A stretch of DNA of 64,000 nt from a virus (lineage: Duplodnaviria > Caudoviricetes): positions 32,001 to 96,000 of the IMG/VR virus record IMGVR_UViG_3300033074_001909. One strand, 5' to 3'. Both the position numbers and the translations under genes were made by a program. Position 1 is the stretch's first letter, and every line of letters begins with the position of its first letter. The notes beneath the pieces were generated by a model. That model had not been told where the DNA came from. It saw nothing but the letters and a program-made list of their open reading frames with translations, and searched no databases. This document shows, one piece after another, positions 20,303 to 60,263 of the stretch.

Positions 20303-20400
20303 CGAATTTGCGGTGCGGAGTAGACTGGCTGGCGAAACGGGCTCCTCGACCAGAGGCCCCGTCAGGATCAGGCAGTACCTGATTTGGACGGGGCTTTTTT
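20299..20400 (+). promoter_or_regulatory. promoter followed by leader terminator
   Basis: TTGACG-16-TAGACT; stem GCCCCGTC...GACGGGGC then TTTTTT. Confidence 0.65.
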
Positions 20401-29336: not shown

Positions 29337-31956
29337 GTCGATCCGCGACTGGCTGCACGCGGCGGCCACGATTCCGATTCAGTGGCGACGTCGGAAGTAT
29401 CTGCGCGACTGCCTGCGGGCCTCGTCCGAGTTGCGGGCCAAGTTGATCGAGAAGAACGACAGCCGGTTGACCACCCATATCCAACGGCTGTTCACGCATC
29501 CCTATTTCGCGTTCGAGCCCCGGCCCGATAATCCCGCCGCCGGCGATCAGCAGACCGGGTTTCTGGAGTCGCAGGCCTTCACGACAGTGGCTCTGGGAGG
29601 CACGGGTAGCGGCAAGAGCTACATCGGCTCACAACGGGCCATCAAGTTCCTCTGCGAGGATCAGCGACCGCCAATCAAGGACACGCCCTTCTTCGTGATC
29701 GCCGACAACCTGGAGGAATCCTCCAAGGCTTGCTGGGCGCAGAAACTCCACGATCTGTTGCCGCGGGAGTGGGTCGACTGGGACCGCATTACCTGGCGCA
29801 GCGCGAAGATGAATTTTCCGCGCATCGTGCCGCTGCGGCCCTGGCAGGACGACCCCAAGACGAACTGGGCGATTTACTTCTGCGGCTACACCCAGGACCG
29901 CAAGGCCTTCCAGGCCATCGCGGCCGGCGGCGCGTGGTTCACGGAACAATTCCCGTACGACATCTACGAGGAAGTCGTCGGGCGTATGCGACAATGGATG
30001 TTCAACGGCGCTCTGTGGCTGGAATTCACGCCGCTGGATCCGACCGACAGCGTCAAAGTCCAGGAGCTGTACGAGAAGTGGACGCGGGGCGAGCTCGACG
30101 AGGATCAATGGTCGTTCTACCGCCTCAACACCGAAGAAGCGGCGAAGAAGGGACACGTCAAGCAGGAGTTTGTCGACACGCTCAAGGCGACGATCTCACC
30201 CGAGATGCTCGCTACCCGCTTGCGCGGGGATTTCGGCTCCTACGAGGGTGTGATCTATCAGAGTCTCAACCCGCTAGTGCATTTCGTGCCCGGGACGCAA
30301 TACGACAAGTGTCCGCGCGATATTAACCTGACGTACAAGCGAGGCATCGACTGGGGCGCCGGCCCATCGAATGCGTTTGTCGTCTTGTGGGGCGCCAAGG
30401 ATTCCATGGGCCGCTGGTTCATTTTCGACGAGTATTACACCACGGATCAGCTCATGACCTGGGAAGATCACGTGCGGGAGATTCACAAGAAGGATGGGTG
30501 GAAACTCATTGGCCAGATAGACCGCGGTCTGACGACGTACCGCCTGGAGCCGATCCCAGGCGTGCCGCAGCGGTGGATTTACGAGCGCTCGAATTTTGGC
30601 CAGACCTACGCGCCACCCGAGCAGCCGGACTTATTCCGTGAGTTCGCGAAATACTGCCTGCCCGTGACGCCAGCCCGGAATGCCTTTCACCCCGGCGTGG
30701 ATTGCGTGCGGCGGCATTTGAAATTCGACGACTTCACGCTCGAGCAGCGGACCGAGCCGCAACTGTTCATCGATCGGCGCGCGTGCCCAAATCTGGCAAG
30801 AGAACTGCCAGCGCTGCAGTGGAAAGACCCGCCCAAGGCAGGCGTGAATCCTTCAAGCGCCAAGATGGAACAGAAAAAAATACATGACCACTCCTGCACG
30901 ATTTCTTCGACGCTCGTGTTGACGGAATCGGGATGGAAGCCAATTATCGAGATCCAGCGAGGCGAGATGGTGGCCTCGCTCGACGGCTGGACTCGGGTGG
31001 AATGCGGAGCGGTCAAGACGGGCGTAAATCGCCCATTGGTGCGAATCACGTTGGACAATGGGGCCGAGGTGGTGTGTACTCCCTGCCATCGGTTCCCGAC
31101 GGAGGATGGATCATGGATCGCGGCGGAACACCTGCTGGGCCGACGTTTGGCGAAGTGGTGCGATACACCACCAGGAGTGGGCAGATGGCGGAATCCATCG
31201 AGTACGGCGGAATGGTGTGGCGACGATACCCCAACTCGCGATTCCCGGCTGCTCGCTACTTCGTCAAGCGAGTTGGTAAGCGGCCTGATGCCATTCTTCT
31301 CCATCGCAGGATCTACGAAGATTTTGTGGGACCAATTCCAAAGGGAATGGCCATCCATCACAAAGACGGGTGCATTACCAACAACCACCCATCCAACCTG
31401 GAACTTTGCACGTTCCGGGATCATTCACAAAAGCATGTGTCCGACAATGTCAACATGCGACAAGGCTTACGCGAGTGGCGACAGAAGCAGCCAGGACAAC
31501 TTCGTCAAATCGCGAAAAATGCCAGCGACGCCTACTGGAGTGATCCACGCGTGGTCAGCCTTACTTGCTCGCATTGCGGCATCGCGTTTTCGTCAAAGGA
31601 CGTGCGCACTAACCGAAAGCGATACTGCTCTGGTGCATGCAATCGGCAGGCGTTGCGAACCGAAAAGCGGCTATGCAAACATTGTGGCCAGGAGTTCTTG
31701 GCGGCATCCTTCGAGCCAAACGTCTTTTGTAGCAAGCGGTGCTCTGCGTGTTATGGAGGTATCCTCCTGCGGAACCGCCGACACGTACTGCATCGCGACT
31801 GAGTCGGGTTCGATGGTGTGGGGAGGCGGAGTCGTGGCGTCAAACTGTGATGCATTGCGCTACCTGCTATACTCCGACTGGATGGGCAACACGGGTGGCA
31901 TCGAAGCCTTCCAGGCCCCGCAGCCGCATCGTCCGCAAGTGCGATTAAGGAAATGA
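29293..31956 (+). CDS. terL: terminase large subunit, intein-containing (start uncertain)
   Basis: Walker A GGTGSGKS, FTPL, RLRGDF, GIDWG, FDEYY, DHS/CDALRY. Confidence 0.9.
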   Translation: MIHHQSPPNLPLHHESIRDWLHAAATIPIQWRRRKYLRDCLRASSELRAKLIEKNDSRLTTHIQRLFTHPYFAFEPRPDNPAAGDQQTGFLESQAFTTVALGGTGSGKSYIGSQRAIKFLCEDQRPPIKDTPFFVIADNLEESSKACWAQKLHDLLPREWVDWDRITWRSAKMNFPRIVPLRPWQDDPKTNWAIYFCGYTQDRKAFQAIAAGGAWFTEQFPYDIYEEVVGRMRQWMFNGALWLEFTPLDPTDSVKVQELYEKWTRGELDEDQWSFYRLNTEEAAKKGHVKQEFVDTLKATISPEMLATRLRGDFGSYEGVIYQSLNPLVHFVPGTQYDKCPRDINLTYKRGIDWGAGPSNAFVVLWGAKDSMGRWFIFDEYYTTDQLMTWEDHVREIHKKDGWKLIGQIDRGLTTYRLEPIPGVPQRWIYERSNFGQTYAPPEQPDLFREFAKYCLPVTPARNAFHPGVDCVRRHLKFDDFTLEQRTEPQLFIDRRACPNLARELPALQWKDPPKAGVNPSSAKMEQKKIHDHSCTISSTLVLTESGWKPIIEIQRGEMVASLDGWTRVECGAVKTGVNRPLVRITLDNGAEVVCTPCHRFPTEDGSWIAAEHLLGRRLAKWCDTPPGVGRWRNPSSTAEWCGDDTPTRDSRLLATSSSELVSGLMPFFSIAGSTKILWDQFQREWPSITKTGALPTTTHPTWNFARSGIIHKSMCPTMSTCDKAYASGDRSSQDNFVKSRKMPATPTGVIHAWSALLARIAASRFRQRTCALTESDTALVHAIGRRCEPKSGYANIVARSSWRHPSSQTSFVASGALRVMEVSSCGTADTYCIATESGSMVWGGGVVASNCDALRYLLYSDWMGNTGGIEAFQAPQPHRPQVRLRK
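30895..31845 (+). mobile_element. intein in TerL (317 aa)
   Basis: C1 CTISSTLVLTESGWKPI, block B CTPCHRF, end TYCI..GVVASN|C; removal restores DHSCDALRY. Confidence 0.88.
31185..31802 (+). CDS. HNH homing endonuclease with Zn fingers, nested out of frame inside the intein
   Basis: AGGAG SD; LLHRRIYEDFVGPIPKGMAIHHKDGCITNNHPSNLE; CSHC/CSGAC/CKHC/CSKRC. Confidence 0.85.
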   Translation: MAESIEYGGMVWRRYPNSRFPAARYFVKRVGKRPDAILLHRRIYEDFVGPIPKGMAIHHKDGCITNNHPSNLELCTFRDHSQKHVSDNVNMRQGLREWRQKQPGQLRQIAKNASDAYWSDPRVVSLTCSHCGIAFSSKDVRTNRKRYCSGACNRQALRTEKRLCKHCGQEFLAASFEPNVFCSKRCSACYGGILLRNRRHVLHRD

Positions 31957-32891
31957 CCATGGCACGACTGAATGCCTCCCAGCGTCGGCAGGTCATCCGG
32001 AACGCGACCCGCGAACTGCGCCGCTCGGGCGGACGTCGCAGCGGATCGGGAGAGCCTGGCCCGTTGGGCGGCCTATTCCGCACGCTGGGGGCCCGCTTCG
32101 GGCCGCTGGGCGAGGTCATCGGCATGCTCGGGGATATCCTGTCCGGCGGACGGCGGGTGACCCGGCGCAATATCGAAGACGCGGTGCGGATCCTGACCGA
32201 AGAGGGATTTGAAGTCGCGCCAGCGCCACCGGAGGCGCCCCCGGTAATTGTGCAGCCTCCGCCGGTGGTGCCGCGTGGGGTACGCCCGGCCCCCGCGGTG
32301 CCGCCGGCATCGATTCCGCCGCTGCCGCCACAGGAACCGGCCGATCCGTGGCCCGCCGAACATTCGGTCCGGATTCTGCCGCGCCGTGTGCGAGGCGTCT
32401 ACGACAGTATCCCGGCCGACATCGACACCTTCCAGGGCTGGATCCTCACGCCCCAGAGCTCCAACGTGCATGCGGTCGCGTACCACGAGGGTATCCTCTA
32501 CGTGTGGTATCGGGCCGCTGGCAAGCCGACCGGGTACAAGGACGGGATCTCGTTATGCACCGGGAAGGCCTATAAGATCGGGATCCGGCCCGACGTGCCG
32601 GGCCCGATCTACTCGTATGGTGGCGCAGGCCGTCCGGTGCCACAGTCGGTGTTTGACGCGATTGCCACGTCGCGTTCGCCAGGCAAGCAGGTCTGGGACA
32701 AGTTGCGCGTGTGCGGATCGCAGTGGCAGCATCAGTACGTGTACACGCTGACCGATGTGCCCATGGGTCAGGCGGTGCCCCGCAAGGCGACGCGTCGCGG
32801 GTTGGCGGTGCGCAATGTCCCCAATGTCGGTCTGGGGCCACGTGGATCTCGCCGTAGCACGCTGCCCGCACGTGTGGCGGGGATCCGGTAA
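31953..32891 (+). CDS. KTSC-like domain protein
   Basis: SSNVHAVAY..LYVWY...YSY..VPQSVFDAI..SRSPGKQVWDKLR. Confidence 0.65.
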   Translation: MTMARLNASQRRQVIRNATRELRRSGGRRSGSGEPGPLGGLFRTLGARFGPLGEVIGMLGDILSGGRRVTRRNIEDAVRILTEEGFEVAPAPPEAPPVIVQPPPVVPRGVRPAPAVPPASIPPLPPQEPADPWPAEHSVRILPRRVRGVYDSIPADIDTFQGWILTPQSSNVHAVAYHEGILYVWYRAAGKPTGYKDGISLCTGKAYKIGIRPDVPGPIYSYGGAGRPVPQSVFDAIATSRSPGKQVWDKLRVCGSQWQHQYVYTLTDVPMGQAVPRKATRRGLAVRNVPNVGLGPRGSRRSTLPARVAGIR

Positions 32892-32905
32892 TTGGCTCCG
32901 CATTC

Positions 32906-32940
32906 GTTGAATGCCCGCGCAGTGGCTTCGTTGCTGCGAG
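32906..32940 (-). repeat. inverted solitary copy of the CRISPR repeat (anti-repeat)
   Basis: Reverse complement CTCGCAGCAACGAAGCCACTGCGCGGGCATTCAAC. Confidence 0.8.
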
Positions 32941-32960
32941 TACAGGTCGACCCACGCCTT

Positions 32961-33140
32961 TGGGCAAGAGCCAAGCCTCTGCGCGGGCACTTCGACCGGT
33001 TGGGACGAGTTCTGCGCAGCCCAAATCCGGAACGCTCGCAGAAACAAAGCCCCTGCGCGGGCACTTCGACTTGTCGACAACCTGGATCCGGTCGAGCACC
33101 GGCTCTCGCAGGAACAAAGCCCCTACGCGGGCATCATCGC
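32961..33140 (+). CRISPR. CRISPR mini-array: three 36-nt repeats, two spacers (38 and 34 nt)
   Basis: Central repeat CTCGCAGAAACAAAGCCCCTGCGCGGGCACTTCGAC (33035-33070); repeat 1 (32961-32996) has a degenerate 5' half, repeat 3 (33105-33140) a degenerate 3' end. Confidence 0.8.
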
Positions 33141-33340
33141 TCTAACCTGGGCCGGCCTTCGCTCCGCGGTCGACTGAGTCCCCCGCGAATCGACTTCGGT
33201 AGTTTCGCCGCGCCCGCATCACGCAGCCATTCCGACAGCGATTTACCTTCCTTCGCGGCCGCCGCCAGAAAGGCCGTCCACCAATCCTGCGGCGCCGTGA
33301 TGTTGCGGCGGATCGTATCGTCTCCATGGGGCTCTGTCAT
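33134..33340 (-). CDS. ribbon-helix-helix DNA-binding protein
   Basis: RRNITAPQDWWTAFLAAAAKEGKSLSEWLRDA. Confidence 0.75.
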   Translation of the reverse strand: MTEPHGDDTIRRNITAPQDWWTAFLAAAAKEGKSLSEWLRDAGAAKLPKSIRGGLSRPRSEGRPRLER

Positions 33341-33353
33341 GCCGGTGATCCTA

Positions 33354-33584
33354 TCACGTCGTGACCGTTATCTGCAGGGTGGCTTTCTCGCGAGTCCAGC
33401 CATGCTGCCGCAGCATCCGCGCCTCGAGCAGTTCCACGCGGTCAAGGCACTGCTGGAGAAATCCCTGTGGCAGATCATAGTCGAGCCCCCAGAACCACTT
33501 CACAACCAGCCAGGTTTGGCGGTCGGTGATTGGTTTCGCGAGTTCCCGCTCCAGGCGGGTAGAAATAGCTTGCGTGGTGGTCAT
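33354..33584 (-). CDS. small hypothetical protein
   Basis: GGAG SD, operon spacing. Confidence 0.6.
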   Translation of the reverse strand: MTTTQAISTRLERELAKPITDRQTWLVVKWFWGLDYDLPQGFLQQCLDRVELLEARMLRQHGWTREKATLQITVTT

Positions 33585-33808
33585 GGTTTGGACGCTCCAT
33601 TGATTCGGAGTAGGTGCAGCTCGAATCGGTCCTTCTCTTCCTGCGTCGCTGGCCGAATCTCAACCGTTTCGCCCGCCTGCAAGGCTGCTTGCACATTAGA
33701 CCAGTCCGACCGAATGCCTCCTGCGGTGTACAAGCACGACATGAGCGTTGCGCTGTCGTGGTAAAAATGCTCGCCGATGTAAATCAGTTTCATGGTCTTC
33801 ATGGTCAT
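33581..33808 (-). CDS. small hypothetical protein
   Basis: AAGGAG SD; MTMKTMKLIYIGEHFY. Confidence 0.65.
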   Translation of the reverse strand: MTMKTMKLIYIGEHFYHDSATLMSCLYTAGGIRSDWSNVQAALQAGETVEIRPATQEEKDRFELHLLRINGASKP

Positions 33809-33988
33809 GCTCCTTGTGAAGAAAATATCGACCGTTGGCCGCGAATGGCCGGCGTCAGCATGCGGGCCGCTCCCCTCGCGGGTCGCGGAAACCACCGGCG
33901 ACGGTCGTCGCGCCGGATCGACGCCGCAGCCCACCTGCCGGACCGCATGACCGGGTGGCCGTCAGGATTGCGGGCTGCGGCGGTTTAG

Positions 33989-34297
33989 TCAGGTATGCTG
34001 GCGGCATCCGCGTACCGGAACGCAAACCCCGGCCCAGTGGCATCGACGAGATACCGGATGCCGGAATCTCCACGATAATTCCGAGAGCCCATCGACCGGG
34101 GCACCGGCGTTGAGCCCGGTGACGTGGTGTCCCGTGGGCATACACTCGATCAGCATCCGCTCGAACTCATCCGTCGGAAGGATACGTGCCACGTCGCGTC
34201 GTGGCACATCGGTGCGCCGCGAGCCGAAGCCAATATTCCGGCGCCCGGTGATGATGAGTTCGTCGCCAATACGCTCGATGGTGTCACTGATTTTCAT
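33989..34297 (-). CDS. small hypothetical protein
   Basis: GGAGAG SD; MKISDTIERIG. Confidence 0.55.
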   Translation of the reverse strand: MKISDTIERIGDELIITGRRNIGFGSRRTDVPRRDVARILPTDEFERMLIECMPTGHHVTGLNAGAPVDGLSELSWRFRHPVSRRCHWAGVCVPVRGCRQHT

Positions 34298-34391
34298 GAT
34301 TCTCTCCGTGATCGAATGCCGCCTTGGGACGGCCGCCGGGCTCACCAGAGCCCGGCGGGGCATTAGGCCGCGAAAGCGGCCCCCTCTGCAT

Positions 34392-34568
34392 CTACCCGTC
34401 GTACTTGACGCGCACAACGCAATGCCAGCCGGCCGCACCGTGCCAGGACATGGGCTCCTCGTCCTCCTGGCCGTCGACGTCCGGCGACGTGTCAGCCATG
34501 CCGCACTCGCCGCAAAACGTCAGGCCGCAGCCGTCCGGTGCCTCGTAGACTCGATATCGCGTGGCCAT
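34392..34568 (-). CDS. small hypothetical protein (58 aa, CxxC)
   Basis: AAGGAGACGACCATG start; MATRYRVYEAPDGCGLTFCGECG. Confidence 0.55.
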   Translation of the reverse strand: MATRYRVYEAPDGCGLTFCGECGMADTSPDVDGQEDEEPMSWHGAAGWHCVVRVKYDG

Positions 34569-34589
34569 GGTCGTCTCCTTGTGTCTCTG

Positions 34590-34931
34590 CTACTCAGCCG
34601 CCTGGATGATTTTGGCGACATCCAGATCGCCGTTGCACGCCGCGTAAATCGGATCGCCATCCGTGTATTCTTCGCCTGGATCGTCCAGGCTGTCTACCAT
34701 TCGCTCGGCAGCAGCGGTTACCTGCTCGGGCGTCAGCTTGGCCGCCACAAACGCATTGGCGGTGGCGGCATCCCAAACGCCAATTTCACACCACGGACGC
34801 GCCGTAGCGGCGGTGAAACCGTAATCGATCCAGTTCTCGGCCTCGTCCTTCGGGTGATTGCCAGTAAACATGCCGCCGTGGTTGCTGAGCATTTCCATCA
34901 TGTCTTGAAGATCCCGATCGATGGTCGTCAT
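34590..34931 (-). CDS. hypothetical protein
   Basis: GAGGAG SD; W..GF....A..W...GVW. Confidence 0.7.
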   Translation of the reverse strand: MTTIDRDLQDMMEMLSNHGGMFTGNHPKDEAENWIDYGFTAATARPWCEIGVWDAATANAFVAAKLTPEQVTAAAERMVDSLDDPGEEYTDGDPIYAACNGDLDVAKIIQAAE

Positions 34932-34981
34932 GGTCGTGTCTCCTCGTGAAAGAAAATCTGGTCGCCGAGCCGCCCCATCGG

Positions 34982-35194
34982 CTACACAATGTTCGTCGCC
35001 TCAGGAATCACTCCGTAGCGATTCAGCAGCCCCACACGCCGTCGCGCGGCTGCTTCTGCCTGCTCTTGCGATGGATAGCCGCCGTTGCACCACGTGGCGT
35101 CGCCGATGTCGATGCGGTAGCCAAAACATCCAGCACTGTAGCCTTCCGGATTCTCGATGATCGTGATGTTGGCTTGCGGGCGTCGTTCGGTCAT
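34982..35194 (-). CDS. small hypothetical protein
   Basis: GAGGA SD. Confidence 0.6.
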   Translation of the reverse strand: MTERRPQANITIIENPEGYSAGCFGYRIDIGDATWCNGGYPSQEQAEAAARRRVGLLNRYGVIPEATNIV

Positions 35195-35259
35195 GGTCGT
35201 GTCCTCGTCTTCGTGTTGGATAAAACCGGGGCGGCCCGAAGGCCGCCCCTCCGTGGGCG

Positions 35260-35730
35260 TCAGAGCGACTCTACCGCAGCGAAACGGCTGCGGTAGTCCG
35301 CCGGGGTCATTCGCTCGGCTGTTACTGCCCCGGCTGCGTCCAGCCGGAGCAGCGTGTACAGCCAGTCCCTCCGGCCGCGATAGCCGGAGGTGACGATGAT
35401 GATGCCCGTCGAGGGCACCCGAAAGACAGCGGCGGCGAAATCGTTGCCGCCGCTCGACGAGGTGGCTACGACCCCGGTCGGTTCGACCGGTGGCAGTTCT
35501 TTCGTGGCAACTGTCTTCGCCTGCTCGGGGCAGGCGAAGCCGTGGAACGTTCCCGCGTCATCTGCGTGCCACAGCACGCAGATGCCTGGGGACAGGCCAA
35601 TCTTACGGTCGCCGATCGTGGCGACCTGGCCGTCGGCGTCGACTGCCAGCGACACACGCCGGCAGTTCGCGCCGGCTTGGCCGGACACGCTTTGCCCCGC
35701 CTTAATTCCGAGCAACATATTCGTGGACAT
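35260..35730 (-). CDS. hypothetical protein, first gene of the minus-strand operon
   Basis: GGAG SD; downstream of promoter. Confidence 0.65.
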   Translation of the reverse strand: MSTNMLLGIKAGQSVSGQAGANCRRVSLAVDADGQVATIGDRKIGLSPGICVLWHADDAGTFHGFACPEQAKTVATKELPPVEPTGVVATSSSGGNDFAAAVFRVPSTGIIIVTSGYRGRRDWLYTLLRLDAAGAVTAERMTPADYRSRFAAVESL

Positions 35731-35772
35731 GAGAATCTCCGTTCGTGGAAGTGGCTTGGTTGTGATGCGTAT

Positions 35773-35802
35773 ACTCTACACACTGTAAACGGCAGAAGTC
35801 AA
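35773..35802 (-). promoter_or_regulatory. sigma70-like promoter of the small-gene operon
   Basis: TTGACT-18-TAGAGT on the minus strand; TACACACT direct repeats in and beside it. Confidence 0.65.
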
Positions 35803-35905
35803 TAACAGTACACACTATTTTTTATCGAAATCCGGAAATAGTCGCAGTAGTCGATAGGGCATGGATTTAGGTATCATGCCCACAACAGGACGGCACCTCG
35901 TTCCG

Positions 35906-35936
35906 AGGCCCGGGAGTCACTCCTTGGGCCTTTTTT
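35906..35936 (+). terminator. leader terminator upstream of the portal gene
   Basis: AGGCCCGGGAG-TCA-CTCCTTGGGCCTTTTTT. Confidence 0.65.
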
Positions 35937-35946
35937 GTTGGGAAAG

Positions 35947-38900
35947 ATGAGCATGACCACCACGCAACCAGGCGGGCAGCGGATCGGCGGACAGACCTAC
36001 ATGCCCGGGCAGATGCTGCCCGAACGCTATCGCCGCGTGCTGGAGCCGTCCGACCGGCCCCGCGATCCCGCCGTCCGTGATCCGGATCTGGCTCCCAACT
36101 TAGGCCGCCATACCGTCCCGCACATCATCACCTTCCAGGGGCTGGTCACCTCCCTAGCCCGGGCCTATCGCAATCCAGACGAGGCCTTCCGACACAGCGT
36201 CGAAAACGCCCACATGATGCTGACGGACCCGACAGTGAGCGGGCCCTTGCACGCGCGGCAGATGATGACGGCGCTGCTCCAGTGGTCGGTGGAAAGCGAG
36301 GACGACAAAGATTCACAGCTCAAAGAAGCGGCCAGCCAACTCCAGAAAGTCCTGGAACGGACGCCGCGGTTCGCTGAACTGCGCCGGTGGCTGCTGGAAG
36401 CTATCTGGTATGGTCGCGCGGCCAGCCAGCACGCGATCGGATTCCACCGCGATCGCTTCGGCGTGCGACGCAGGGTGATCAAGAAATGGCTGCCGATCTC
36501 TGGCGACAAGCTTCTCTTCCGCTACGACGACGGGAGCGGGGAGTTCGACCCGGATCAGATTGGCGTGCGGGTCAGCCCGGGACTCGGCCGCGAGGATATC
36601 ATCGCCGGGCGGCGCAAACTCGAGGCCACAACCGACGGCATGGGCTACTTCCTGGAGCCCTGGGAGCGTCGGCACTGGGCGGTCCACAAGCACATGATCC
36701 GCGACGGGGAATTCGAGGATCCACTCAGCGCAGGGCAGGTGCATGGCGTCGGCCTGCGGCACTTTCTCTATTGGGTCTGGTATCAGAAGCAGGAGGCTAT
36801 GGCGCAGCTCGCCGAGGTGCTCGACCGTACTGGCGCGGGGATCACCATCTACTATTACCCCGTCGGGAATCAGGAAGCGAAAACCCAGGTGGAAAAGGTG
36901 GCCCGCGAGCAGGCGCACACCAACGTGCTGGTGATGCCGTTCGACCCGGCCAGCACAGGCGGCGACCCGTATTCGATTCAACAAATCCCGCCCAACGTAG
37001 CCGGCCTGCAGGCCCTCCAGGACATCGTGGACGGTTATTTCGGCGACATGATCACGCGGGCCATTCTGGGTCAGACGCTGTCCAGCAAACCCTCCGCAGC
37101 GGGCATGAATACGGGCGTCTCGGATCTTCAGAAAGACTCCCTGTTCCATATCGTGCGATACGACGCGGTCAATCTCCAGGAAACCATCACGCGGGAGATC
37201 CTGTTGCCGCTGCGGGACTTCAACCTACCGAAGTTCCGCAACGTGGATTTCTTCTTCAAAATCTCGACCAAAGTCAGCGCGCCGCAGGAAGAACTGGCCG
37301 CCATTTATCAGGCCTGGCAGATGGGCACCAAAATCCGCGTCCAGGATCTCTTCCAGAAGCTCGACATGGCCATGCCGGACAAAGACGACAAGGTCGTGTT
37401 TAACCCGCAGATTGTGTCAGCCATTCAGCAGGTCGAGAGCGCCCCGATGGGTGGTCTCGCCCCGCCCGGTGGCGCCGGGCCTCAGCCTCCCGGCGCCACC
37501 CCATTTCCACCCGGTGCTGCGGAAGGCACCCCTACAAGTGAGGGCGGGGGCCAAAATGAACCCCCGCCCATAGATAGAGGGGGTGCCAGCGGCCAACCGG
37601 AGCAACTGGATAAGGCCGAAAGCCCCGAGCAGGAACGCCGGAAGTTGTTTGGCCCGATCCTGTACGGTAAGCGCGAGGAGTATCTGGAGCGGATCAGGGA
37701 AGCGGTCGAGAACACCGAGCCCAACCCCACCGAGGCCCAGCGCGAGGCCGGCAATTATCGCAAGGGCGTGGTGCATTGGCGGGGTTTAGAAGTGGTGATC
37801 GAGACGCCCAAGGGTCAGCGGCGGCGCCCGGAATGGCCAGCTCTGCGGGCGCATTACGGCTACATCCGCCGGCATTACCACACGGGCGAGCAACGGCTAG
37901 TCACCAGCGAGCCGTGCGCCGACGGCGACCATCTGGATATCTTCTTGGGGCCACAGCCCGAAAGCGACATCGTGTTCGTGATCGACCAAGTGACGGCCGA
38001 CGGAAAGTTCGACGAGCACAAGTGTATCCTGGGCACGACCAACAAGCGGGACGCCCGGGCGCTGTACCTGTCGAACTATGCGGACGGGTGGAAGTGCGGT
38101 CCGATCCGGGGCATGACGATCGAGACGTTCAAGCACTGGCTCGAGCACGGAGACCTGACGAAGCCGGTGGCGCGCCAGAAACTCAGGTACGCGCGGCAAT
38201 TGTCGCTGTTTGACGATACGTTCTCGCTGGTGCGCAAGCCGAGATCACTCTTTGACGAAGGATCGCATCCCCGGGCAAAAGAGCATGTGGAGATCCAGGG
38301 CAAGGAATACGAAGGCGGGCAATGGATCCCGAAAGACGCGGCGGTGGAAGCCACGCCAGCGGCCCAAGAGAAAATCGAGGTAGTGGACAAGTCCACGGGC
38401 GAAACCGAACCACTTGAGCAAACGCTGAAACCTGGGGATAATGCCACCGCATCGCCACCGAGTCCCGAGGACGACTCCCATGACCAACCACGATCCGACG
38501 CAGAATTCGCACCTGGAGAGCCAGATTCCACCGGAGGAGATGGAGATCGAGGACGACCTGACGACGGAGAATCTGGCGGCGCAGGCGATTTGGGAGCAAA
38601 TCCAGTTGGACCGTCAGAAGAACGGATCGTCACCTCACGCCAACAGCACACGCGCCCAGCGGATCGATCCCTCGTTCCAGAGCGACTTCGACAACATCTA
38701 GACGACCACCAGCAGGAAGGCGTCGCCAAGGCGATTGCCTCTCTTCGGGATGTTGGTGGCTTCCTTAACTCCGACGGGACTGGCGTCGGTAAGGCGCAGC
38801 CGCTCGACGAACCGATTTTGACTCCCACCGGATGGAAGCGGATGGGCGATCTGCAAATCGGCGATGAAGTCATTTCAGCCGACGGATTTCCCACCAAAAT

Positions 38901-56861: not shown

Positions 56862-57611
56862 ATGACCGCCCCGCAATTATTTGCCAGCTACTGGCCCGAG
56901 GGACCGCATCGCTGCTACTACTGCGGCGGGCGATGCGACGAGACGCATCGAGCTGCTGATCTGGTCCAGTCGTCGTTTACCGCACGTGATACCGTGGCTG
57001 GCGGTGAGTACGTGTGCCCTGGCTGCATCGCTGCGATGGACGAGAGGGCCACGATTACGCTGGCCGACGGCGAAGTGCGCGAAGGCCAGCGGGTCCGCTG
57101 CTACTCCTGGGTCATCACTGCCGAAGCGGCGATCGCTGCCACCAAAGCTCATCGCGCGTGGCTGACAGGAGCGTGCCTGTCGCCTCCAGAACCGCCCTAC
57201 GTCATCTCGATCAGCGACAGCGGGCAACGGCACCTGCTGTATCGTGCCGTCGTATGCCATTCTCGCGAGATCATTACCGCCACTCTGGAGGGCGAGCGGG
57301 TAACATTCACACCCTATGAGCTTGACGAGCGGTTGACGCTGTGTCGCAAACTGATCGCGGCAACCGGCAAGCCGGCTCTGTCCGAAGCACCGACTGCACG
57401 ATTCGGCATGTCGGTAGTCTCGCATCACGACGACGAATCACTGATCTCCACGTGGCTGGAATGTCGCGAGCAACCGCTGTCTCGCCTGGCGGCGTGGCTC
57501 TCGCCTCCCAAGGAGGAATGCTTACTTGAGTTCCCAGCACCAGCAGCTCCCGCCCCCACTGCCTGTGCTCGACACCGAGCAGTTCAGGCAACGTTTAGCT
57601 GGCTTGATTGA
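56862..57611 (+). CDS. csf1: type IV CRISPR Csf1 (Cas8-like)
   Basis: CYYCG, VCPGC Zn finger; PPEPPYVISISDSGQRHLLYRAVV. Confidence 0.8.
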   Translation: MTAPQLFASYWPEGPHRCYYCGGRCDETHRAADLVQSSFTARDTVAGGEYVCPGCIAAMDERATITLADGEVREGQRVRCYSWVITAEAAIAATKAHRAWLTGACLSPPEPPYVISISDSGQRHLLYRAVVCHSREIITATLEGERVTFTPYELDERLTLCRKLIAATGKPALSEAPTARFGMSVVSHHDDESLISTWLECREQPLSRLAAWLSPPKEECLLEFPAPAAPAPTACARHRAVQATFSWLD

Positions 57612-57999
57612 CCAGCGATCCGAAGTGGACGCCGAAGATTTCGCCAGCGTGGCGGCGTGCGCTATCCATTTTGTCTCGTCGCTGCCGATTGTGTTCGGCG
57701 AGCAGCTCGAGCGCACCACACTGTGGGATAAGATCGGCGCCGCCCTGGATACCGCTTACGCCAAGACCGCCGCCGATGATTGCGACTTCTTTATCAGTCG
57801 CGTGCTGGAGTCGATCCTGGCTTCTCCGGCGGCCGTCGCTCGCTGTGAGGCCATCGGCCAGGTGATAACGTGGCTCTCCGCTGCGCCGACTGAGATGCGG
57901 CACGCGTGGCTGCAGTACATCGCCACGCACCGCTATGCCGTGCTCGTACGCGCTCGCATGGCCTGGGAGCAGCAGAAGGAGGCTCGCGCCAATGCCTGA
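57526..57999 (+). CDS. type IV-B small subunit (Cas11-like), alpha-helical
   Basis: position between csf1 and csf2; helical composition. Confidence 0.65.
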   Translation: MSSQHQQLPPPLPVLDTEQFRQRLAGLIDQRSEVDAEDFASVAACAIHFVSSLPIVFGEQLERTTLWDKIGAALDTAYAKTAADDCDFFISRVLESILASPAAVARCEAIGQVITWLSAAPTEMRHAWLQYIATHRYAVLVRARMAWEQQKEARANA

Positions 58000-58876
58000 G
58001 ACCTATACGATCCTCTGCGTGAGTGAAGCCGCCTCGCCAATCACGCACATGAGCGGCAGCGCCGGCAATGAGGCGATTATCGCTCGTGCGCCCGTGATGA
58101 CGGATCGCGGGAAACTGTGGATACCATACCTCTCAGGTAATGCCCTGCGCCACCGTTGCGTGCGAGATCCAGGCGTGGATTTCCTTTTGGATCTTTACGA
58201 ACTGCGAGGCAAACTTACACTGCCGCAGCTCAATTTCCTGCGGCACGGCGGAAATCTCACGGAGTCCACCGCACACGAGAACACGGCCCGCATCGCCGAG
58301 ATGAAACGCACTTGGCCGCTACTGCGATTGCTGGGTGGCTCGTTGCCAAACCAGATCCTGGCCGGCAGCCTGCAAGTCTGGCGTGGTGAACTGGTGTGCG
58401 AGGAAAACCGCCAATACCTGGCCACGCTCGGAGACTGGCTGCCCACGCGGCGACTCAAGGCTGCCGAGGAGTTCATCGGGAACTACCAGTACACGCGCGG
58501 CGATGCCGCGAAGTCCGGCGAGGCTCAGGCGGAGGAGGATCGCGAGAGCAATCTGATGATCTTCGCTGGCCAGCAGGTCAATCGTGGCTCGCTGTTTGTG
58601 CATGGCTTCGTGGCGCCTCACGCGTCGCGCGTCGAACTGGGCGCGCTGCTGCTGTCGCTCCGACTCTGGCAGTCCCGCGGCGGGACGATCGGCGGACAAG
58701 CGGCGCGCGGCCACGGCCGGCTGGCGATGTCCCTGGTCGGTGCGATCGACCAGTCGTGTGTGGACGAGTACGTCGAGTACGCGATCAGCGTGCGAGATGC
58801 GGCGATCGCGTGGCTTGAGGACTGCTTTGCGAAGCGAGCCGACAAGCCAGCGAAGACAAAGAAGGTGAAGGCATGA
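57992..58876 (+). CDS. csf2: type IV Csf2 (Cas7-family RAMP)
   Basis: SPITH, IPYLSGNALRH, L.HGG.L, PLLRLLGG, G-loop IGGQAARGHG. Confidence 0.88.
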   Translation: MPETYTILCVSEAASPITHMSGSAGNEAIIARAPVMTDRGKLWIPYLSGNALRHRCVRDPGVDFLLDLYELRGKLTLPQLNFLRHGGNLTESTAHENTARIAEMKRTWPLLRLLGGSLPNQILAGSLQVWRGELVCEENRQYLATLGDWLPTRRLKAAEEFIGNYQYTRGDAAKSGEAQAEEDRESNLMIFAGQQVNRGSLFVHGFVAPHASRVELGALLLSLRLWQSRGGTIGGQAARGHGRLAMSLVGAIDQSCVDEYVEYAISVRDAAIAWLEDCFAKRADKPAKTKKVKA

Positions 58877-59538
58877 GCCTGCTCGTGATCGCGCACCTAT
58901 CGTCGCCGCTGGCCGGTGATGCGCCGATGCTGGACGGACTGCTCGAGTTCGAGATGTCGCAGAGACTCGGTGCGGCGTATAAGGTCCGCCGCGATCAGCC
59001 TGCACCGCCCGCCGGAGCGATCCATATTCCGATGCTGCGGCGCGGTATCGGCGGTTGGAGTGTTCCGCTCTGCTCGTCACCGATCTACACCGCCGAGAGT
59101 GATCGGCATGAGTACATCGGCAAGCGGCTGGCGGTCGAGCACGCCAGTGATTTACGCGAGGATGCACGGCTGGTCGTGGCGATGGGCAACGCGACCTACA
59201 AGTCATATCGCCTACCGCTGCGAGTGAGGAATGTGTCACGCGTGGCGTGGTTCTGCGAGGGGCATCGATCGCCGATTTTGAAGCTGCTCAAATCGGTACA
59301 CGCGATCGGCCGGAAGCGGTCAGATGGATACGGTCGCGTGGCGCGATGGACTGGCGAGAACGTGGATGGCAATCATCACTGGTACGGCGAGAGCGAGCAC
59401 GGCCCGGTGCTCATGCGACCGCTGCCGTTTGGCGACTGGCTGCCGCGCAGCCTGCTCGGCGCGAAGCGAGATTTCGGTGCGGTCGTCGCGCCGTACTGGC
59501 ATCCTGATCGCTATGCGGAGATTGTGGTGCCATGCTGA
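58873..59538 (+). CDS. csf3: type IV Csf3 (Cas5-family RAMP)
   Basis: LSSPL..LDGLL, YKSYRLPL, IGRKRSDGYGRV, MRPLP, PYWH. Confidence 0.85.
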   Translation: MSLLVIAHLSSPLAGDAPMLDGLLEFEMSQRLGAAYKVRRDQPAPPAGAIHIPMLRRGIGGWSVPLCSSPIYTAESDRHEYIGKRLAVEHASDLREDARLVVAMGNATYKSYRLPLRVRNVSRVAWFCEGHRSPILKLLKSVHAIGRKRSDGYGRVARWTGENVDGNHHWYGESEHGPVLMRPLPFGDWLPRSLLGAKRDFGAVVAPYWHPDRYAEIVVPC

Positions 59539-60263
59539 TTCGCACTGCTCGCCACACGGCCGCAGACCTGGCATTGTGGGAGTCGCTCGAGGACGCCGAC
59601 ATTCTGAGGCAGGACGTGGCCGCCTATCGCGCACGGTACGCTGAGGCGCTGCACGCGATCGCCGCGTTTACATCCGCAGGCGAGTGCTACGCCGGCATCA
59701 GTTGGGGGAAGGACTCTACCGTGCTGGCTCATCTGATCCAGTGCGTCGCGCCTGACACGCCACTAGCCTGGACGCGAGTAGAACCGATCGCCAATCCAGA
59801 CTGTGTGCTCGTGCGAGATGCGTTCCTGCGATTGCATCCGCACGCGAACTATCACGAGATCACGGAGTGGTGTGAGTGGCGCGATGGAGAGTGGCACGCC
59901 ACTGGCACGCTCGAAAGCGGCATCGCCAAGTGCCGAGAACGATGGGGAGAGCGGACGATACTCGGTATTCGAGCCGAGGAGAGCACCCAGCGTGGGTTCC
60001 GCATTTGGCGCCACGGACTATCGACGGATCGGTCGTGTGATCCACTGGGACGCTGGCGCATCGAGGACGTGATGACCTGCCTGGCAATCGAGGGACTGCC
60101 GGTGCATCCGGCTTACGCCATGCTGGGAGGCGGGCGCTGGCCGCGAGAGCAACTGCGGGTCTCGTCGCTCGGCGGTCGTCGCGGCGATGGCCTCGGGCGA
60201 GCAGAGTGGGAGCGCGAGTATTACGGCGATGTGGTGCGACGGCTGGCCATGACGGACACCTGA
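59532..60263 (+). CDS. CysH/PAPS-reductase-family protein associated with type IV-B
   Basis: PP-loop SWGKDS, LGIRAEES, PLGRW..DV. Confidence 0.85.
   Translation: MLIRTARHTAADLALWESLEDADILRQDVAAYRARYAEALHAIAAFTSAGECYAGISWGKDSTVLAHLIQCVAPDTPLAWTRVEPIANPDCVLVRDAFLRLHPHANYHEITEWCEWRDGEWHATGTLESGIAKCRERWGERTILGIRAEESTQRGFRIWRHGLSTDRSCDPLGRWRIEDVMTCLAIEGLPVHPAYAMLGGGRWPREQLRVSSLGGRRGDGLGRAEWEREYYGDVVRRLAMTDT

Follow-up and report, generated by a model that had tools for sequence, protein, structure and literature searches.

The repeat cluster at positions 32961-33140 of a 64,000-nt stretch of phage DNA is probably a remote mini-array of two guides, encoded on the minus strand and belonging to the phage's own type V-M (Cas12m) CRISPR system, by which they would be processed and loaded as crRNAs once transcribed. 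The stretch analyzed, hereafter the window, corresponds to bases 32001-96000 of a 106,332-bp IMG/VR phage record, and positions below refer to the window unless given as genome positions. The record carries genes for a small and a large terminase, and its ends overlap by 76 nt; it is therefore probably a circular or permuted complete assembly. The phage occurs across 13 studies of wastewater, sludge and aquatic metagenomes, and Planctomycetota are only a lead as to its host.

A first-pass annotation made from the letters of the sequence had described three 36-nt repeats separated by unique spacers of 38 and 34 nt. Coordinates, shuffled controls and a search of the genome confirmed this layout. 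The three copies of about 36 nt lie at 32964-32996, 33038-33070 and 33108-33140, with start-to-start distances of 74 and 70 nt, and a 24-nt core of the repeat was matched twice in the window against 0.00 matches expected from 100 shuffles. Both spacers (38 nt at 32997-33034 and 34 nt at 33071-33104) are unique in the 106-kb genome. The repeats at the two ends (32961-32996 and 33105-33140) are degenerate on opposite sides, just as the annotation had noted, with the asymmetry now seen from the other strand. Its central claim, that this is a genuine phage CRISPR mini-array with two spacers that could each be released as a guide, is likewise upheld as a prediction. The same annotation had read both spacers as open, coding-like frames, an observation that carries no weight given that base-composition arithmetic at about 64% G+C leaves a 12-codon frame open in about 70% of cases. 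The features of the locus are collected in Table 1.

Table 1. Features of the mini-array, its neighboring genes and the type IV-B-like operon (window positions; bit scores and their E-values from the covariance model).
Feature	Position	Strand	Sequence	Evidence or remark
312-aa ORF	31953..32891	+		No family match; after large terminase gene
Solitary repeat unit, intact scaffold	32905..32940	+		Forms inverted repeats; 42.5 bits, E=2.3e-6
Terminal degenerate repeat, 5' part kept	32961..32996	-	GTCGAAGTGCCCGCGCAGAGGC	36.6 bits
Guide 2, 38-nt spacer	32997..33034	-	CGTTCCGGATTTGGGCTGCGCAGAACTCGTCCCAACCG	Unique in genome
Full 36-nt repeat	33035..33070	-	GTCGAAGTGCCCGCGCAGGGGCTTTGTTTCTGCGAG	51.5 bits, E=4.2e-8
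Guide 1, 34-nt spacer	33071..33104	-	AGCCGGTGCTCGACCGGATCCAGGTTGTCGACAA	Unique in genome
Mini-array unit 1	33105..33140	-		40.9 bits, E=4.8e-6
68-aa ORF, weakly Arc-like (ribbon-helix-helix repressor)	33134..33340	-		phrog_6506, E=0.00097, weak
Type IV-B-like operon csf1-cas11?-csf2-csf3-cysH-like	56862..60263	+		Csf profile matches

The phage is not array-less, since it has a 13-repeat array of this repeat directly downstream of a Cas12m homologue. This main array starts 121 nt downstream of a 672-aa ORF (genome 103821-105839, about 39 kb from the mini-array), on the same strand, and runs from genome position 105961 across the record ends to 614, with spacers of 35-38 nt. The 672-aa ORF matched the Cas12m structures 23vw_A (E=1.6e-40), GoCas12m 8pm4 (E=1.1e-15) and Cas12m2 8hhl/8hio (about 4.5e-14), and its RuvC positions aligned with D, E and D in the structure-match alignment. 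A 4.3-kb contig was also observed to encode a 98%-identical Cas12m. Using a covariance model built from the genome's own copies, we recovered 31 units in the 106-kb record and nothing else, which amounts to 30 distinct units given the overlap of the record ends; the units in the window scored 36.6-51.5 bits alongside the array repeats, in a model trained on the same units. About 27 further copies lie outside the window. These include another mini-array at about 102 kb (units at genome 102180-102287) and two tandem clusters with linkers of only 3-23 nt, one of seven units (genome 15385-15713) and one of four (genome 17645-17839), both in sense orientation between plus-strand genes.

The sequence of the repeat on the cas12m strand is GTTGAAG-TGCCCGCGCAGAGGCKTTGTTTCTGCGAG, and what varies from one scattered copy to another is precisely its first 7 nt. 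The last 29 nt yield a covarying 6-bp helix together with a GCC/GGC stem: CGCAGA pairs with TCTGCG at positions -8 to -3, the upstream GCC pairs with a GGC in the loop, and the terminal bases are AG. The first-pass annotation had placed a GCCC/GGGC stem in the repeat, and its GCC/GGC part does pair, but the main covarying helix is CGCAGA/TCTGCG. Folding energies of single units were no better than those of shuffles (z from -1.4 to +0.9), so we relied on covariation. Across 36 distinct units, 95.7% of the cells of this pseudoknot were paired, compared with 87.1% in shuffles (0 of 500 reached the observed value), and the covariation score was 0.275 against 0.124 (0 of 500). Sliding the pairing partners by 1-3 columns lowered pairing to 25-54%, and pair counts revealed four pairs altered on both sides. 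Rfam gave no family at threshold in the window, with chance-level hits only in 32700-33400 (CRISPR-DR15, 14.7 bits, E=8.1).

This geometry agrees with that of Cas12m2, whose scaffold derives from a 36-nt repeat with a disordered first 7 nt and a 6-bp helix formed through positions -8 to -3, and whose structure shows A(-2) engaged and an extra stem stacked onto the helix (PMC10442227); the phage repeat has the 3' strand of its helix at -8 to -3, an A at -2 and a dispensable 5' 7 nt. A second viral contig (L012) encodes a Cas12m that is 27% identical and carries an array in the matching position and orientation, with a repeat, GTCGAAATGCCTGCTCGGGGGCTTCGTACCTGAGAC, of matching layout in which the stem is kept through compensatory double changes. 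The pre-crRNA repeat of MsCas12m ends in ...CGCCUAGCUCAGGGGCUCGAAAACUGAGAC, followed by the spacer (PMC11013384 supplement). When compared by eye and with no statistic attached, the MsCas12m and L012 repeats share with the phage repeat the layout YGCC-N2-3-stem-GGC-loop-stem-A(C/G). By its attachment to cas12m and its predicted fold, the repeat is thus the type V-M repeat of the phage's own system. The earlier assignment to a Cas6-type class 1 repeat is not sustained, since the fold, the dispensable 5' 7 nt and the published repeats are those of type V-M and the record holds no Cas6: no match to the Cas6 families (PF01881, PF10040) was obtained at E<=1 in six frames of the phage record. A Cas1 family was likewise matched in no frame of the record.

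The strand from which the mini-array would be transcribed is most likely the minus strand, because the orientation of the main array relative to cas12m, the L012 locus, the MsCas12m pre-crRNA, the Cas12m2 geometry and the pairing and covariation data all point to it. G-U pairs outnumbered A-C pairs on the cas12m strand by 11 to 5, a modest excess. The decay of the terminal repeats points the same way: in the main array the most degenerate repeats stand at the end distal to cas12m, and in the mini-array the broken repeat stands at the minus-strand 3' end. The annotation's hairpin near the 3' end of the transcribed strand is accordingly reversed by the cas12m gene, this decay and the published repeats, all of which set the opposite strand. 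With the minus strand most likely the transcribed one, its 8-nt ACTTCGAC handle would be the repeat's dispensable 5' end in reverse complement.

Read in this direction, each unit of the locus takes on a distinct predicted role. In unit 1 (33105-33140), the 29-nt Cas12m scaffold is intact from 33133 down to 33105, and the 5' 7 nt (33140-33134) read GCGATGA, the final bases of the upstream ORF with its TGA stop, in place of the dispensable 7 nt; the scaffold begins 1 base past the stop codon of the Arc-like ORF. The helix of this unit is CGTAGG/CCTGCG, in which pairing is kept via one U-G wobble and one compensatory change from A-U to G-C. The terminal repeat (32961-32996) has lost the 3' strand of its helix, with 1 of 6 pairs still Watson-Crick, one G-U and 2 of 6 lost, and because of this loss it is predicted to be unable to act as a scaffold, although it may mark the 3' end of guide 2. 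Guide 2 resembles spacer 5 of the main array at 15 of its first 20 nt, an outlier among 153 pairs in which the next best reached 11. The 312-aa ORF stops 14 nt ahead of the solitary plus-strand unit, and the sequence beyond that unit (TACAGGTCGACCCACGCCTT...) is unique.

The cluster as a whole occupies the gap between two converging genes, a plus-strand ORF ending at 32891 and a minus-strand ORF ending at 33134. The former, the 312-aa ORF, is the last plus-strand gene ahead of the cluster. The latter, the Arc-like ORF, closes a series of small genes that runs leftward, with its stop adjoining the first scaffold; in its frame, third codon positions take 4 of the 7 listed strain differences. We propose that the mini-array would most likely be transcribed as the 3' tail of this leftward small-gene operon, that Cas12m would attach to every 29-nt pseudoknot scaffold, cleaving on its upstream side, and that two crRNAs would be released, each consisting of a scaffold followed by a 34-nt or a 38-nt guide. 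Such self-processing has precedent, as pre-crRNA maturation by characterised Cas12m proteins themselves takes place within the repeat and needs no tracrRNA (PMC11013384; PMC10442227). The third repeat, having lost the 3' strand of its scaffold, would only close the array. By analogy with characterised Cas12m, the loaded effector would bind complementary DNA adjacent to a PAM and block its transcription or replication without cutting. A third guide-like RNA may come from the plus-strand unit, with which the converging terminase operon ends. A metatranscriptome contig (32765-32953) covers the plus-strand unit only; it shows neither strand nor ends and may represent DNA carry-over. Its end in the RNA library was rejected both as an RNA end and as evidence of transcription, as the contig stops where repeated words begin.

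Comparison with related phage populations suggests that the guides are conserved. Contigs from three other studies, compared over 32000-34400, showed no listed difference in 32892-33247, and one of them was identical across 32981-33247, while the minus-strand genes at 33248-33700 had more than 30 differing sites in relatives. The invariance of the mini-array across relatives is likely and applies to the listed differences, 25 further strain differences lying outside that listing. Spacers absent here occur in the main array of relatives and, in one run, also in the 102-kb mini-array. The annotation had counted invariant spacers as a sign against function; fixed guides beside a changing main array instead fit a hard-wired role.

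We then searched for targets of the two guides. Neither found one in the phage's own genome, where matches anchored at the 5' end extended to only 10 nt, a chance level, and none of at least 11 nt was anchored at the PAM-proximal 5' end, which is the base that directly follows the repeat. A blastn search with 32900-33145 returned no match among GenBank phages, and four PLSDB plasmid matches (E=0.7) from a search with the same interval were rejected as chance. Exact 18-20-mers and back-translated patterns of both spacers had no match in IMG/VR, nor did the repeat, in searches from which the phage's own record was possibly excluded. The first 20 nt of guide 2 had one exact metagenome match, in a GNAT-like ORF, which was rejected as a target because it did not extend past 20 nt and about 1 such match was expected by chance. 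The suggestion that the spacers target competing viruses therefore found no support, with no match for either spacer in the phage collection, in IMG/VR or in the phage itself. The searched collections hold few relatives of this phage: none was found through the neighboring 312-aa gene, and 50,697 phage records yielded no megablast match to window 30000-36000. As a separate observation, spacer 8 of the main array agrees at 31 of 35 positions with an intergenic site in the genome of the phage itself (genome 52330-52364), with PAM-proximal mismatches at positions 4 and 7. This is the pattern to be expected if the main array targets close relatives and its carrier escapes; the core of spacer 8 had no match in IMG/VR, again with the phage's own record possibly excluded.

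The first-pass annotation had interpreted the locus as a guide source for a type IV-B system. The type IV-B-like operon is, by its profile matches, real: Csf1 (E=1.2e-12), Csf2 (1.7e-5) and Csf3 (2e-6) were matched in order, all below curated cut-offs, Csf2 also matched 7JHY (E=2.7e-4), and the cysH-like gene after the csf genes gave a weak PAPS_reduct match (E=0.0081). The presence of this operon is one point in favor of an array read from the plus strand, in which a host Cas6 would cut after the GCCC/GGGC hairpin to leave the 8-nt handle and the crRNAs would load onto the phage IV-B Csf complex or a host class 1 complex. The degenerate ends would leave two releasable crRNAs in the plus orientation as well. 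Borrowing of crRNAs by IV-B systems was hypothesised earlier, without support (PMC7038947), and an Actinomyces plasmid carries IV-B beside an inactivated type V effector and a conserved mini-array (PMC12669027). We nevertheless consider this explanation very unlikely. The array next to cas12m is built from this repeat, published Cas12m repeats match it when it is read in the opposite direction, the G-U pairs favor the other strand, and no Cas6 family was found in the record. No unit lies near the csf operon either, the nearest being about 10 kb away (genome 102180-102287) and the mini-array about 23 kb, and nothing found suggests that the Csf complex takes up the RNAs of the mini-array. In addition, the RNA bound by the solved IV-B complex was heterogeneous and not of CRISPR origin (PMC7937560). 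A link between IV-B and the mini-array is therefore kept as a low-probability possibility and not as an explanation.

Other readings accept the type V-M repeat and differ in what the units would do. The units may be docking or cleavage sites for Cas12m, or structured terminators, by which the 3' ends of the converging operons are marked and processed, with the spacers serving as linkers. The cluster does sit squarely in the space between converging genes, with a unit right next to each stop codon, and the plus- and minus-strand units form inverted repeats of 26-37 nt that are 81-90% complementary. Elsewhere in the genome, tandem units with linkers of 3-23 nt stand between same-strand genes; these linkers cannot be ordinary guides, so the units there may also, or instead, be sites on mRNAs at which Cas12m docks or cuts. 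For the mini-array, we regard this account as unlikely. Its spacing of 34 and 38 nt matches the 35-38 nt of the main array, the decay of its terminal repeat is array-like, no U-tract follows the hairpins of the repeat cluster in the sequence, and relatives show no listed change in the linkers, although linkers should drift freely. The spacing of an array, a decayed terminal repeat and spacers that appear to be fixed thus favor guide cassettes over docking sites.

Two further possibilities fit worse than the guide-cassette reading. Phages are known to carry solitary repeat units that imitate the repeats of the host and act as Cas inhibitors (PMC10651486), and the units here could likewise be Racr-like RNA decoys that titrate a host Cas12m, or a host effector with a similar repeat, to protect the phage. 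An Acidobacteria genome bin with three tandem, spacer-less units of the phage repeat's family is compatible with this idea; a search of that bin with the phage Cas12m as query found no Cas12m. A decoy role is highly improbable, as the phage's own Cas12m uses the same repeat and would itself be titrated, a decoy would need neither full-length spacers nor a closed array, and a scan of 185,579 species-representative bacterial genomes for the repeat pattern returned three loci and no array. Finally, with two of its three repeats degenerate and no targets found, the locus might be a piece of the main array that recombination has moved and that is now decaying without function. Against this, exactly the parts for two scaffold-plus-guide units have been spared, the helix of the first unit is kept via a compensatory change, and the locus shows no listed sequence change across the samples of other studies while its flanks vary, which makes decay barely credible.

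Starting from the guide-cassette reading, a more specific function can be put forward, albeit tentatively and with a rather low expectation that it is correct. Because the guides sit in the 3' tail of an operon and appear fixed while the main array turns over, they may be hard-wired, operon-coupled repressors, with Cas12m acting as a programmable, timed silencer of a conserved host or rival gene and the other scaffolds acting on phage messages. In a bolder extension of the repressor idea, the neighboring IV-B Csf complex would share the RNAs of the mini-array; the csf and Cas12m modules are 11.5 kb apart.

The system closely resembles characterised type V-M systems. With MmCas12m2, GoCas12m, MsCas12m and UnCas12m (PMC10442227, PMC11013384) and the myxophage MV-1, it shares a 36-nt repeat and a 29-nt pseudoknot 5' of the guide; with type V-M systems and the MV-1 locus (bioRxiv 10.64898/2026.09.14.751636), the lack of a tracrRNA and of adaptation genes and an array downstream of the effector; and with Ms, Un, Tf and Mv Cas12m, the RuvC D-E-D alignment. 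A Cas12m from IMG/VR was characterised in 2024, and a phage-borne Cas12m was reported in 2026, with the gene and one adjacent array only (bioRxiv 10.64898/2026.09.14.751636). The phage differs from these type V-M systems in that, in addition to its effector-linked array, it has remote mini-arrays and tandem clusters of scaffolds, lying as far as about 40 kb from the cas12m gene; the mini-array described here is joined to an operon's 3' end.

Viral mini-arrays and solitary repeats are themselves already known (PMC11656645, PMC10651486). Like the locus described here, viral mini-arrays and solitary repeat units (PMC11656645; Racr, PMC10651486) consist of one or two spacers away from cas genes, with a lone repeat beside them. 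However, known viral mini-arrays copy the repeat of the host and mostly target related viruses, whereas this phage uses the repeat of its own effector and no related-virus target was found. Regulatory crRNA-like RNAs encoded by mini-arrays of CRISPR-cas loci and of phages (PMC10120712; bioRxiv 10.1101/2024.10.29.618823) offer another parallel in their degenerate repeats, their fixed guide and a plausible outcome of binding alone. Those RNAs have partial matches to the promoters of cas or defense genes, whereas the guides of the phage have no anchored match of at least 11 nt in the phage genome.

The literature searched did not yield an arrangement in which remote mini-arrays carrying the repeat of a phage's own Cas12m are joined to the ends of operons. 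What appears to be new is the combination, in a Cas12m phage, of remote and apparently fixed guide cassettes at operon ends with tandem scaffold clusters. If the cassettes are used, the virus would run its own small CRISPR-interference network, in which the expression of guides is tied to its transcription programme. Such a network, if true, would be a natural counterpart of laboratory CRISPRi and would provide a lead to the role of non-cutting Cas12m in mobile elements. At the same time, nothing found indicates that the IV-B module draws guides from the mini-array, which removes a tempting false lead.

The Actinomyces plasmid that combines IV-B with an inactivated Cas12b3 (a V-B3 variant; PMC12669027 Extended Data Fig. 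7) is similar in having an array-less Csf/CysH-like module, a small non-cutting type V effector and a short conserved array. The present case differs in that a phage is the element, Cas12m serves as effector, the two modules stand apart and several arrays are present. A IV-B module thus again travels with a small type V system of the non-cutting kind.

The two ORFs that precede the mini-array on the minus strand, the 76-aa ORF and then the Arc-like ORF, are both small and adjacent; the 76-aa ORF is of unknown function. Such a pair could be a regulatory or toxin-antitoxin-like module, with the mini-array guides carried on its transcript. In a sludge metatranscriptome library, one contig of 189 nt matched window 32765-32953 with no differences; it spans the plus-strand repeat unit as well as the last part of the 312-aa ORF. 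Because this contig ends where the repeated words start, it is uninformative on RNA ends.

Features near the mini-array and related loci
Feature	Position	Strand or orientation	Setting
76-aa ORF	window 33354-33584	minus	directly ahead of Arc-like ORF
68-aa Arc-like ORF	window 33134-33340	minus	adjoins mini-array
Second mini-array (two units, 36-nt spacer)	genome 102180-102287 (L009:6180-6287)	minus	
Prepilin-type DUF1559 / H-X9-DG protein gene (PF07596, E=1.6e-49)	genome 102591-103754 (L009:6591-7754)		just upstream of cas12m
Seven tandem Cas12m scaffold units	genome 15385-15713 (L010)	sense	between plus-strand genes
Four tandem Cas12m scaffold units	genome 17645-17839 (L010)	sense	between plus-strand genes
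Three tandem spacer-less units (phage's Cas12m repeat family)	L013:3846-3966, contig DAIDIF010000048.1 (Acidobacteria genome bin)		intergenic

The second mini-array lies antisense between two plus-strand genes, with a promoter-like site (TTGACG-N15-TATGAA) directly upstream of its first unit. In run X17, one low-depth contig carried a different spacer at this site.

The two ends of the phage record, outside the window, are identical over 76 nt (genome 1-76 and 106254-106329), a sequence consisting of one repeat and main-array spacer 5. Given this identity, the record, which is labelled 'linear, 75% complete', is probably in fact a complete assembly, either circular or permuted. Because both ends share these 76 nt, the main CRISPR array continues unbroken across them, with 13 repeats and 12 spacers.

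Comparison of guide 2 (the 38-nt mini-array spacer, window 32997-33034) with main-array spacer 5 (genome 39-74) revealed that 15 of the first 20 nt are common and that the two are unrelated beyond; this was the top pair of 153, the next-best sharing 11, and the targets of the two may be variant copies of one site. Main-array spacer 8 was identical at 31 of 35 positions to an intergenic stretch of the phage itself (genome 52330-52364, window 20330-20364), the exceptions being spacer positions 4, 7, 29 and 35, and an 18-nt core of the matched motif was found again at genome 13278-13295. Spacer 8 looks as if it was acquired from a closely related phage, while the phage that carries it is spared through the mismatches in the seed.

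Within both tandem scaffold clusters, the units are separated by gaps of only 3-23 nt, too short for normal guides, and their helices are intact, with compensatory changes. The clusters may represent sites at which Cas12m docks on mRNA or cuts it. The three units of the Acidobacteria bin are spaced at 38-42 nt, and a search of this 3.2-Mb bin with the phage Cas12m protein found no Cas12m. Atlas look-alikes of the phage's DUF1559 / H-X9-DG protein were mostly from Planctomycetota, a resemblance that offers a lead to the host phylum.
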